Assembly: GCA_030141605.1 (NCBI GenBank)
Contig: JAQGDQ010001128.1
Coordinates: 1 to 60,614 of the forward strand
DNA from: Tubiluchus corallicola
Lineage: Eukaryota; Animalia; Priapulida
Direction of reading: 5' to 3'
DNA: 60,614 nucleotides
The position numbers were made by a program, and so were the translations under genes. The first letter of the stretch is position 1. Every line of letters begins with the position of its first letter. The notes below the pieces were generated by a model, which saw nothing but the letters and a program-made list of their open reading frames with translations, was not told the DNA's origin and did no database searches. This document shows positions 12,891 to 49,295 of this stretch, piece after piece.

Positions 12891-12969
12891 ATGAAGTTTT
12901 TATTAGTTATTTTGTTCGCCGTATTTTTTTGTTATTCAGAAGAGGCAATAAACGATGAGTTGCCGAAAG
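12891..12969 (+). CDS. TTLL4: TTLL4-like exon 1: signal peptide [26 protein letters not shown]
   Basis: aacATG start, basic n-region, 11-residue hydrophobic core, C-Y-S as -3/-1 site, donor AAG|GTAAGC phase 1. Linkage to the downstream exons is inferred from phase and position. Confidence 0.75.
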
Positions 12970-48900: not shown

Positions 48901-49295
48901 TTGAAAGATATCCTATTACTATAGTTTTTCTACGTCAGTTTTTTTAGTGAATTACGTCATCTTCTAGAATCTGTCCCTCAGAATTTTAAATAAGTTTTTC
49001 ACTTGCCTTGGCTGAGGTAACTTGTAAATGGTACTAATAAGATGGGTGAGGAACAATGTAAGATGATAATAAAGTTTCACCGAAAATCAGCAAAATACCG
49101 AGTTAAATAATGTAGGCAGGTATAGCTACAGTTTCCTTAAGGGTGCATCAGAAAAGCTCCTATTATGCATATGCGTGTAACTATTGCAGATTTTCTCTTA
49201 TTAAATTTACAAGCGATGGCAGTCGTAATTGTTGGTTTGTTTTGTTTTTAGGTTGGAAAGTTTTGGATTCTGCTTATAAGGAAAATCTCGTGTAA
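12891..49295 (+). CDS. TTLL4: TTLL4-like tubulin glutamylase-family (ATP-grasp) protein with N-terminal signal peptide; 15 coding exons, 563 aa (whole gene span)
   Basis: join(12891-12969,14049-14063,16893-17060,24429-24536,29375-29451,31543-31740,32230-32309,32991-33119,35313-35435,37205-37303,38017-38148,44131-44241,46290-46407,48191-48401,49252-49295) = 1692 nt, open frame, all GT-AG. Motifs in TTLL4 order: [91 protein letters not shown]. This is a divergent paralogue-like copy rather than a typical orthologue. Confidence 0.88.
13589..13781. repeat. Compound (ATT)n(ATC)n microsatellite
   Basis: Direct inspection. Confidence 0.97.
14049..14063 (+). CDS. TTLL4: TTLL4-like exon 2: 15-nt microexon (A)MKRE(E)
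   Basis: tttcttcgcag|CTATGAAAAGGGAAG|gtaaac; phase 1-1, frame-preserving. Confidence 0.55.
16893..17060 (+). CDS. TTLL4: TTLL4-like exon 3
   Basis: tttttttcag| ...|gtattt; ERNGDFSS...[25 protein letters not shown] resembles the TTLL4 PALIxSLFxNVPP motif. Confidence 0.85.
17855..18030. repeat. About 75-bp tandem repeat, about 2.3 copies
   Basis: TTCGCCACTAGTACA...AAGAAAAGTATTTCAA at about 17855, 17930 and 18004. Confidence 0.8.
19616..20999 (+). pseudogene. LINE ORF1 (probably frameshifted near 19750-19800)
   Basis: The ATG ORF 19616-19873 with Cys motifs overlaps the GTG-start ORF 19740-20999 in a different frame. Confidence 0.7.
20926..23849 (+). pseudogene. LINE ORF2 (endonuclease + reverse transcriptase), split by a frameshift and a stop near 21780-21795
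   Basis: ORFs 20857-21837 and 21834-23849 are in different frames. Upstream of 21834 the second frame reads VD*EKA, with TAG where Trp is expected, just after a T-run. Confidence 0.88.
24038..24118. repeat. (CA)n microsatellite (3' half; 5' half at 19215-19284)
   Basis: Direct inspection. Confidence 0.95.
24429..24536 (+). CDS. TTLL4: TTLL4-like exon 4
   Basis: ctttatag|...|gtgaga, phase 1-1; [36 protein letters not shown] parallels TTLL4 VEKLP...LRWK...SHF. Confidence 0.85.
27331..28221. repeat. 130-bp tandem repeat, about 7 copies
   Basis: CACTGGCAGTCACTCAGT... at 27331, 27461, 27591, 27721, 27844 (preceding unit has a 7-bp deletion), 27974, 28104. Confidence 0.96.
28295..28775. repeat. 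40-bp tandem repeat, 12 near-perfect copies
   Basis: Unit CAACCTGCTGTACAGTGTTTCTTTCTCACAATGCAATGTA. Confidence 0.97.
29375..29451 (+). CDS. TTLL4: TTLL4-like exon 5
   Basis: tttctttatag|...|gtagca; [26 protein letters not shown] (TTLL4 DDWLGCWG...IREHQK). Confidence 0.88.
30883..31272. repeat. Compound (AAT)n/(AGT)n/(AGTGGT)n microsatellite
   Basis: Direct inspection. Confidence 0.97.
31543..31740 (+). CDS. TTLL4: TTLL4-like exon 6
   Basis: [21 protein letters not shown]...[12 protein letters not shown]...LWISKP; ag|...|gtaggt, phase 0-0. Confidence 0.93.
32230..32309 (+). CDS. TTLL4: TTLL4-like exon 7
   Basis: [27 protein letters not shown]; tttttacag|...|gtaagg. Confidence 0.92.
32991..33119 (+). 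CDS. TTLL4: TTLL4-like exon 8
   Basis: [43 protein letters not shown]; atttcag|...|gtgagt. Confidence 0.95.
33170..33800 (-). mobile_element. Degenerate 3' fragment of an RTEX-like LINE
   Basis: Minus-strand remnants [10 protein letters not shown]...[17 protein letters not shown] resemble ORF 43028-43486; ends in AATAAA plus an (AATCT)-like tail. Confidence 0.55.
34701..35072 (+). mobile_element. MITE, intact copy (AATAAGCC-TIR family)
   Basis: TIRs plus subterminal inverted repeat GTCAAAGGTTAAGTGTACCA / TGGTACACTTAACCTTTGA. Confidence 0.8.
35313..35435 (+). CDS. TTLL4: TTLL4-like exon 9
   Basis: [25 protein letters not shown]...KGHTW; ttcttag|...|gtaagt. Confidence 0.93.
36468..37150 (+). 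mobile_element. Possible Helentron-associated (HINE/DINE-1-like) non-autonomous element
   Basis: 5' small palindrome AAGCATTTTGATGCTT, a (GAAA)-type microsatellite near 37070-37105, then a terminal hairpin AGATTCTG-ttgtaag-CAGAATCT. Structural resemblance only. Confidence 0.35.
37205..37303 (+). CDS. TTLL4: TTLL4-like exon 10
   Basis: [33 protein letters not shown]; phase 2-2. Confidence 0.92.
38017..38148 (+). CDS. TTLL4: TTLL4-like exon 11 (catalytic D and E)
   Basis: [44 protein letters not shown]; gtttag|...AG|gtttta. Confidence 0.93.
38243..38740 (-). mobile_element. Non-autonomous element copy (family of 6412-6900)
   Basis: Starts TTAA|AGGAAA; the reverse complement aligns with about 6420-6800. 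Confidence 0.6.
40301..42926. repeat. 37/38-bp minisatellite, about 70 copies, in intron 11
   Basis: Unit GA(C/T)ATCA(C/G)AGGTCATTGAATG(C)TTTTGTGTGTTAACTC. Confidence 0.97.
42945..43742 (+). mobile_element. 5'-truncated degenerate RTEX-like LINE fragment
   Basis: Begins at a YAND (YADD-derived) motif; ORF 43028-43486 contains KYLDHVI and [13 protein letters not shown]; 3' end AATAAA with a TTGAA tail. Confidence 0.75.
44131..44241 (+). CDS. TTLL4: TTLL4-like exon 12
   Basis: [36 protein letters not shown] (TTLL4 ...MIRDLLNLAGF.LP); cttttag|...|gttagt. Confidence 0.88.
44523..45914 (-). mobile_element. PIF/Harbinger DNA transposon, internally deleted
   Basis: Degenerate TIRs of about 30 bp (..TCCACTGCGcCCGgACAGACAC / GTGTCTGTGCGGACGCAGTGGAAACGCGGCC) with TTA adjacent. 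ORF 45442-45738 has the Harbinger transposase N-terminus (WVHP...GEYHHL...YMRM...F..LL...KQNT). Confidence 0.82.
46290..46407 (+). CDS. TTLL4: TTLL4-like exon 13
   Basis: ttttttag|...|gtaagt; phase 2-0 bridges exons 12 and 14; [13 protein letters not shown]...[15 protein letters not shown]. Confidence 0.8.
48191..48401 (+). CDS. TTLL4: TTLL4-like exon 14
   Basis: [37 protein letters not shown]...[10 protein letters not shown]; 211 nt, phase 0-1. Confidence 0.95.
49252..49295 (+). CDS. TTLL4: TTLL4-like terminal exon 15
   Basis: tttgtttttag|GT TGG AAA... [14 protein letters not shown]; parallels the paralogue's last exon (GWELL). Confidence 0.78.

Follow-up and report, generated by a model that had tools for sequence, protein, structure and literature searches.

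Can a tubulin-modifying enzyme be turned into a ligase of the secretory pathway? This question is raised by a TTLL4-like gene at positions 12891 to 49295, plus strand, of contig JAQGDQ010001128.1 from the priapulid Tubiluchus corallicola, which was analyzed as a stretch of 60,614 nucleotides, hereafter the window. The substrates known for TTLL chemistry are cytosolic and nuclear. A first-pass annotation had proposed that the catalytic domain of the glutamylase TTLL4 was rerouted here into the secretory pathway. The gene descends from TTLL4, belongs to a tandem duplication, and has lost the residues that select glutamate; its first exon likely encodes a signal peptide. The product may be a luminal ATP-dependent ligase, derived from a duplicated TTLL4, that modifies secreted proteins by joining a non-acidic amino acid to their glutamate side chains, a reading that is put forward tentatively and with slightly less than even confidence.

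Structure of the gene

Rebuilt from the raw sequence, the 15 exons gave 1692 nucleotides or 563 codons with a single terminal stop and none internal, and all 14 introns were of the GT-AG type, which agreed with the uninterrupted reading frame of 563 residues described before. The exons were as follows.

12891-12969, plus strand: exon 1, predicted signal peptide (residues 1 to 16) and 10 residues, phase-1 donor
14049-14063, plus strand: exon 2, symmetric 15-nucleotide micro-exon, frame survives its skipping, in-frame ATG at 14051
16893-17060, plus strand: exon 3, linker, then onset of TTLL4-like sequence (residue 65)
24429-24536, plus strand: exon 4, N-terminal lobe
29375-29451, plus strand: exon 5, N-terminal lobe
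31543-31740, plus strand: exon 6
32230-32309, plus strand: exon 7
32991-33119, plus strand: exon 8
35313-35435, plus strand: exon 9, altered donor-site loop, Thr325 (35431-35433) as the K283 equivalent
37205-37303, plus strand: exon 10
38017-38148, plus strand: exon 11, Thr399 (38135-38137) at the position of the Asn of the ExN motif
44131-44241, plus strand: exon 12, Ser414 (44162-44164) at the K377 position
46290-46407, plus strand: exon 13, C-terminal helical region
48191-48401, plus strand: exon 14, C-terminal helical region
49252-49295, plus strand: exon 15, C-terminal helical region and stop

Exons 6 to 8 together encode the retained residues K163, K214, the initiase-type R220 (codon 32242-32244), R258, and R280, and exons 10 and 11 the retained metal ligands D384 and E397. 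Similarity to TTLL4 begins at residue 65, as had been noted, with herring TTLL4 (P0003) aligned from there at 42% identity over 500 columns. The Pfam TTL (PF03133) cut-off was passed by exon 6 and by exon 11, each alone, and exon 9 matched below the cut-off. The open reading frame (ORF) stops 14 codons into exon 15, leaving no space for additional domains.

Contigs from a DNA run (X1), apparently of another individual, covered exons 6, 8, 10, and 11 without gaps. Three exonic differences occurred among the 40 rows listed (189 further), two of them synonymous and one changing His to Tyr, and the contig over exon 11 contained 6 substitutions in 401 bases. A possible RNA run (X2) covered only repeats and nothing on exons 6 to 11, and was uninformative about expression. 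Intron 3 harbors a near-complete long interspersed nuclear element (19734-23849, plus strand), in which an ORF of 421 codons, matching nothing in Pfam, precedes endonuclease and reverse transcriptase frames that overlap each other in different phases.

Active site

The numbering of TTLL6 was transferred via the alignment with herring TTLL4, and residues were counted in 120 homologs. Equivalents of K125, K174, K215, D217, R219, R241, T263, N264, D346, and E359 were retained, with the phosphate and magnesium ligands K125, R219, R241, D346, and E359 being K163, R258, R280, D384, and E397 here. The initiase Arg at TTLL6 position 180 was present as R220. In the TTLL6 study (bioRxiv 10.1101/2020.06.07.139295), R219, R241, D346, and E359 are essential, and Arg180 marks branch initiases, glutamylases and glycylases alike.

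Both glutamate-selecting lysines were gone. K283 was replaced by Thr325 and K377 by Ser414, positions at which 105 and 119 of the 120 homologs, respectively, carry Lys. As described in the same study, the donor glutamate is held in TTLL6 by K283 and K377, each of which is essential; both positions are invariably Lys in glutamylases, and polar or hydrophobic residues occupy them in glycylases (bioRxiv 10.1101/2020.06.07.139295). Moreover, Y265 and S266 of the donor loop read Gly and Gln, and the ExN motif, located on the last conserved strand, reads EVT. In other ATP-grasp ligases, the Asn of this motif binds metal. For TTL and TTLL6, the accessible texts name the Asp and the Glu as magnesium ligands and not this Asn (PMC3563685; bioRxiv 10.1101/2020.06.07.139295), and an occasional polar substitution of the Asn is documented (PMC4431377). 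An assembly indel behind the altered motif is unlikely because the X1 contig crosses exon 11 without gaps, and no motif match pointed to a hidden micro-exon that would restore it between 38130 and 44200.

The premise of an intact TTLL4 glutamylase in the first-pass annotation was thus wrong. Because both glutamate-selecting lysines are lost and the ExN motif reads EVT, the protein is probably not a glutamylase. The gene descends from TTLL4 and yet, judging from its residues, should not be filed under this activity, since neither lysine for the donor glutamate is present.

Exon 1 as a predicted signal peptide

The start of the protein resembles a signal peptide, as the first-pass annotation had indicated: by hand rules (n/h/c pattern), it has a basic residue, Lys2, a hydrophobic core with an 11-residue window of a Kyte-Doolittle mean of 3.39, and a predicted cleavage site after Ser16 with small side chains at −3 and −1. 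Elsewhere in the protein, no 11-residue window was above 1.5. The start context at 12891 is good, with an A at −3 of the ATG. The hydrophobic codons of exon 1 are T-rich and end at a frame-keeping AG before 12940; therefore, this stretch could be the pyrimidine tract of an intron instead.

Two rules were used to evaluate this, a strict one (Met, Lys or Arg, and an uncharged core of at least 3.0) and a loose one (Met and a hydrophobic run). Among 345 acceptor-like site-frames on both strands of the window, the loose rule was satisfied by 4 and the strict rule by a single one, which was exon 1 itself; among the 14 true acceptors of the gene, the loose rule was satisfied by 1 and the strict rule by none. 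With leave-one-out scoring, the internal AG before 12940 reached 2.1 bits versus 2.2 to 11.5 bits in 15 true acceptors, a score that 9% of 6892 AG sites also reach. Four hydrophobic phase-1 first-exon candidates were found on both strands, two of them being exon 1 and the first exon of a head-to-head gene described below, and all three alternative phase-1 exons with an ATG start in the interval from 7840 to 12939 are located within repeats or a Pao remnant. These in-window comparisons somewhat overstate the case for a signal because the window was picked for looking so. On these sequence features, exon 1 likely encodes a real signal peptide.

The plus strand has an in-frame ATG at 12774, from which the frame stays open over the 39 codons to 12891; if used, the hydrophobic stretch would serve as a short signal anchor. 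The AG before 12877 is a possible acceptor in the 5' untranslated region (3.7 bits), and a Pao/BEL retrotransposon remnant is located upstream of exon 1 at 10869-11380 (minus strand).

Relatives and phylogeny

Among the matches listed, the closest protein was P0001, which is N-terminally incomplete and 45% identical. A one-residue insertion before K125 was present only in the T. corallicola protein and in P0001, the latter being 1 of 171 pattern-matched sequences. P0001 retains the Asn of the ExN motif and scored 241.9 bits against PF03133; its structure model (predicted local distance difference test, 85.9) suggested TTLL6 as the best match (E value of 1e-28). In a careful tree of 30 rows, with an outgroup of protist rows and rows taken as TTLL5-like by motif and with no TTLL1/2/3/6/7/9 or glycylases, both proteins grouped together (support, 100/99) and within the animal TTLL4 group (99/99), inside which their place had no resolution. 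No clade member besides P0001 was found among the best 120 of 516 matches and the best 150 of 10,611 representatives to P0001. The homolog search with exon 6 gave 0 of 16 candidates and that with exon 14 gave 4 of 26, and the ESM Atlas added only TTL and TTLL4 clusters. Single-exon alignments to P0001 were too poor as profiles and were dropped.

Screening of 267 fetched proteins of at least 250 residues revealed four hydrophobic starts, two apparently false and two apparently real. The latter two belong to XP_013397583.1 of Lingula anatina (P0226, 599 residues) and to P0269 (529 residues), an uninterrupted read of an unspliced-looking contig of 1.7 kb; each has a predicted signal-like start and a TTLL4 core. 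The three near-full-length cluster mates of P0269 begin six residues later, with the same segment where read (P0234, P0270). In P0269, the K283 position is Thr and the K377 position is Asp, and each of P0001, P0226, and P0269 shows a set of pocket changes of its own. A common origin of the signal-bearing lineages received a support of 0.74 in one tree and was left open by the 30-row tree, and an approximately unbiased test gave a P of 0.205 for the grouping of the T. corallicola protein with P0001 and P0226. From these alignments, a single clade of all signal-bearing proteins is neither shown nor rejected.

Bee proteins annotated as TTLL4 (P0004, P0017, P0021, P0024 to P0030, P0032, P0036, P0037, and P0040) are short and lack a signal peptide. 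Their K283 site is mostly Met or Ile, and the initiase Arg is replaced by Ala; by their sequences, they form another divergent TTLL4 offshoot.

Location of the product

The first-pass annotation had based the rerouting also on sequons and on the missing N-terminus. The four N-glycosylation sequons are present (N53, N138, N441, and N475) at a count expected by chance, and they carry no weight for this reason: shuffles of the protein composition yielded a mean of 3.75 sequons with P(≥4) = 0.53, and 99 canonical cytosolic TTLL4 cores contain 4.7 ± 1.4 versus 3 in the matching region here. Sequon enrichment as a sign of secretion was rejected by both comparisons. A reduced positive charge as a trace of lost tubulin binding was likewise rejected, the net charge being no different. 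Between 7.8 and 16.9 kb, the plus strand indeed contains no long coding ORF for a long N-terminus, repeat frames excepted, but this says little because short TTLL4-like proteins without a signal peptide exist in bees (537 to 624 residues).

Cysteines in the core numbered 3 in the T. corallicola protein, 1 in P0001, 3 in P0226, and 3 in P0234, versus 6.7 ± 2.0 in the 99 canonical cores (137 of 140 rows had sufficient length for counting) and 7 to 12 in the bee proteins with an altered pocket and no signal. A low cysteine content fits an oxidizing compartment, as far as can be judged from composition. A location in the secretory pathway is indirectly suggested by the in-window comparison, the weak internal acceptor, the two independent database proteins of the same design, and the low cysteine number, but the sequon part of the argument fails.

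Possible function and competing explanations

If so, exon 1 of the duplicated TTLL4 would be spliced to the catalytic exons, and the protein would enter the lumen of the endoplasmic reticulum (ER) or the Golgi apparatus and be cleaved after Ser16. ATP is imported into both compartments, where kinases such as Fam20C reside. Luminal ATP would be used to form an acyl-phosphate on the gamma-carboxyl of a substrate glutamate, as in other TTLLs. The linkage may be of the isopeptide, branch-initiating type because the initiase Arg is kept. Since Lys283 and Lys377 became Thr and Ser, the donor may be neutral, such as Gly or a different amino acid that is small or uncharged. Nothing in the data supports the isopeptide cross-linking between proteins or the tissues and secretions (matrix, adhesive, cuticle/tube/shell, or gland) that had been named before.

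Several observations weigh against a functional luminal ligase. The hydrophobic stretch of exon 1 overlaps the T-rich acceptor-like site. No RNA read spans any junction, and the joins of exons 1, 2, and 3 are a prediction from sequence. The only close relative, P0001, lacks the first approximately 118 residues, so that the signal peptide cannot be checked within its own clade. P0022 and P0177, two of the four hydrophobic starts, are apparent false starts on ordinary TTLL4s, which demonstrates that this artifact does occur. The three signal-bearing lineages have no supported common clade, and their pocket changes are not uniform because P0269 has Phe at the essential R241 and P0226 keeps K377. 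Sequons and net charge (14 versus 17 ± 8) are the same as in cytosolic TTLL4; the cysteine comparison was made post hoc, and low counts (4 to 5) likewise occur in other long-branch rows that lack a signal. Finally, the N361 equivalent in the ExN motif is Thr, although it is Asn in 120 of 120 homologs, G238 is replaced by Ala (Gly in 120 of 120), and the S266 equivalent, kept in 118 of 120, is changed; this could mean that activity was lost.

These residues lead to a different explanation, a secreted or luminal pseudo-enzyme, which would bind nucleotide or acidic peptides but not ligate. The changes at N361, G238, and Y265/S266 coincide with the loss of both donor lysines, and mutating either lysine alone abolishes the activity of TTLL6 (bioRxiv 10.1101/2020.06.07.139295). 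P0269 lacks R241, and inactive versions were predicted among the C7orf58 orthologs (PMC2824669). The retained phosphate and magnesium ligands remain to be set beside these losses, and a pseudo-enzyme appears rather unlikely. If the substitutions instead came from lost constraint in a decaying duplicate, a young pseudogene, the many changed sites that are otherwise invariant would be understandable, but 563 codons without a stop or frameshift, 14 GT-AG introns intact despite large insertions, a ratio of nonsynonymous to synonymous substitution rates (dN/dS) of 0.13 on exon 14, and a second individual without indels over four exons make this very improbable.

Alternatively, exon 1 may have been misread: its hydrophobic stretch would be the pyrimidine tract of an intron or lie outside the coding sequence, and the gene product would be a short TTLL4-like protein of the cytosol that starts from the ATG at 14051 within exon 2 or from an upstream exon. 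The acceptor-like AG before 12940 preserves the frame, one of the 14 true acceptors likewise yields Met and a hydrophobic run, hydrophobic false starts do exist in database models, and bees possess short cytosolic TTLL4-like proteins with altered pockets. On the other hand, none of the 15 true acceptors scores as low as the internal one, whose level is reached by 9% of the AG sites, the competing ATG-started first exons sit in repeats or the retroelement remnant, the start context at 12891 is good, and independent signal-bearing TTLL4 derivatives exist. Such a misreading is therefore unlikely.

Comparison with known systems

The luminal ligase proposed here is closest to TTLL4 itself, the tubulin monoglutamylase and branch initiase (PF03133), being nested in the animal TTLL4 group and about 40 to 43% identical over 500 residues, with the ATP and metal residues and the initiase Arg in common. 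Unlike TTLL4, it has a predicted signal peptide instead of a long N-terminus, neither of the two lysines for the donor glutamate, EVT as the ExN motif, an end right after the core, and tandem paralogs. The Lingula protein P0226 and P0269/P0234 share the signal-like start, the TTLL4 core, the short C-terminus, an altered donor loop, and few cysteines, but are about 31 to 36% identical to the T. corallicola protein with other pocket changes; they are not annotated as secreted, and their signal is a prediction.

The claim of an undescribed secreted ligase system stands in part. No report of a secreted TTLL4 was found in the literature searched (supplements and most subscription papers not covered), but C7orf58/CPED1 was predicted in 2010 as a secreted TTL-like ATP-grasp ligase, proposed to add amino acids to surface proteins (PMC2824669). 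Compared by this description, CPED1 carries fused cadherin-like and PC-esterase domains and resembles TTL only distantly, whereas the gene here is a stand-alone, recent TTLL4 derivative without room for fused domains. The glutathione synthetase (GS)-like effectors of cyst nematodes also arose by duplication of a housekeeping ATP-grasp enzyme, gain of a signal, a kept ATP site, and a changed pocket, but they belong to the glutathione synthetase family and are delivered into host plant cells (PMC5919673); no parasitic context is apparent here. The TTLL3/8/10 glycylases have non-basic residues at both donor-site positions, as described in the TTLL6 study (bioRxiv 10.1101/2020.06.07.139295), but the sequence here is TTLL4 derived, and the likeness would be an analogy of the pocket only.

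It seems doubtful, but worth stating, that animals repeatedly made TTLL4 duplicates into secretory-pathway peptide ligases with a new amino acid specificity. If true, the tandem cluster here, the Lingula protein, and P0269 would be separate examples, and the repeated conversion would define an undescribed modification, the amino-acylation of glutamate side chains in the ER/Golgi or outside the cell. Activity of the T. corallicola protein in the lumen, with its changed donor pocket, would mean a new class of modification for secreted proteins, the 2010 prediction of a secreted amino acid ligase would become directly testable with a compact single-domain enzyme, and invertebrate annotations as “tubulin polyglutamylase TTLL4” would prove to include secreted non-glutamylases. 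Even if inactive, the protein would show that the fold of a cytoskeletal enzyme was put to use outside the cell.

Paralogs and neighborhood

The gene is flanked by the following features.

60383-60593, minus strand: exon 14 equivalent of paralog B (tblastn), 211 nucleotides and phases as in exon 14
59557-59648, minus strand: candidate last coding exon of paralog B, TTLL4-like C-terminal motif, then stop
7651-7744, minus strand: head-to-head first exon, predicted signal peptide, phase-1 donor, ATG at 7744
7824-7831, minus strand: TATA-like element of the head-to-head gene, read from sequence

The exon 14 equivalent at 60383-60593 indicates a tail-to-tail paralog. Both exons are 74% identical in nucleotides, with a dN of 0.18, a dS of 1.35, and a dN/dS of 0.13 over 70 codons, and both paralogs are under purifying selection on exon 14. 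The start of an opposite-strand gene 5 kb upstream, mentioned in the first-pass annotation, is present as a candidate. Its first exon did not resemble exon 1 significantly in either DNA (P = 0.56) or protein (P = 0.08), and no TTLL exon was found on the minus strand between 1 and 7650; this gene is possibly a further paralog, and may or may not be the third one, since neither similarity to exon 1 nor downstream exons were found.

Downstream of the head-to-head exon, a retroelement integrase frame (H2C2, rve, SH3) occupies 3788-5422 (minus strand). Reverse transcriptase remnants are situated between the paralogs at 54157-55754 (plus strand) and 58755-59123 (minus strand), and a frame at 56696-57499 (minus strand) resembles such remnants but has no Pfam match. 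An open frame at 52237-52499 (minus strand) with a good acceptor and a hydrophobic end is a possible exon, either of paralog B or of a different gene. Tandem arrays cover 1-3180 (65-base unit), 9513-10215 (36), 27325-28222 (130), 28295-28775 (40), 40305-42926 (38), and 51241-52021 (41).

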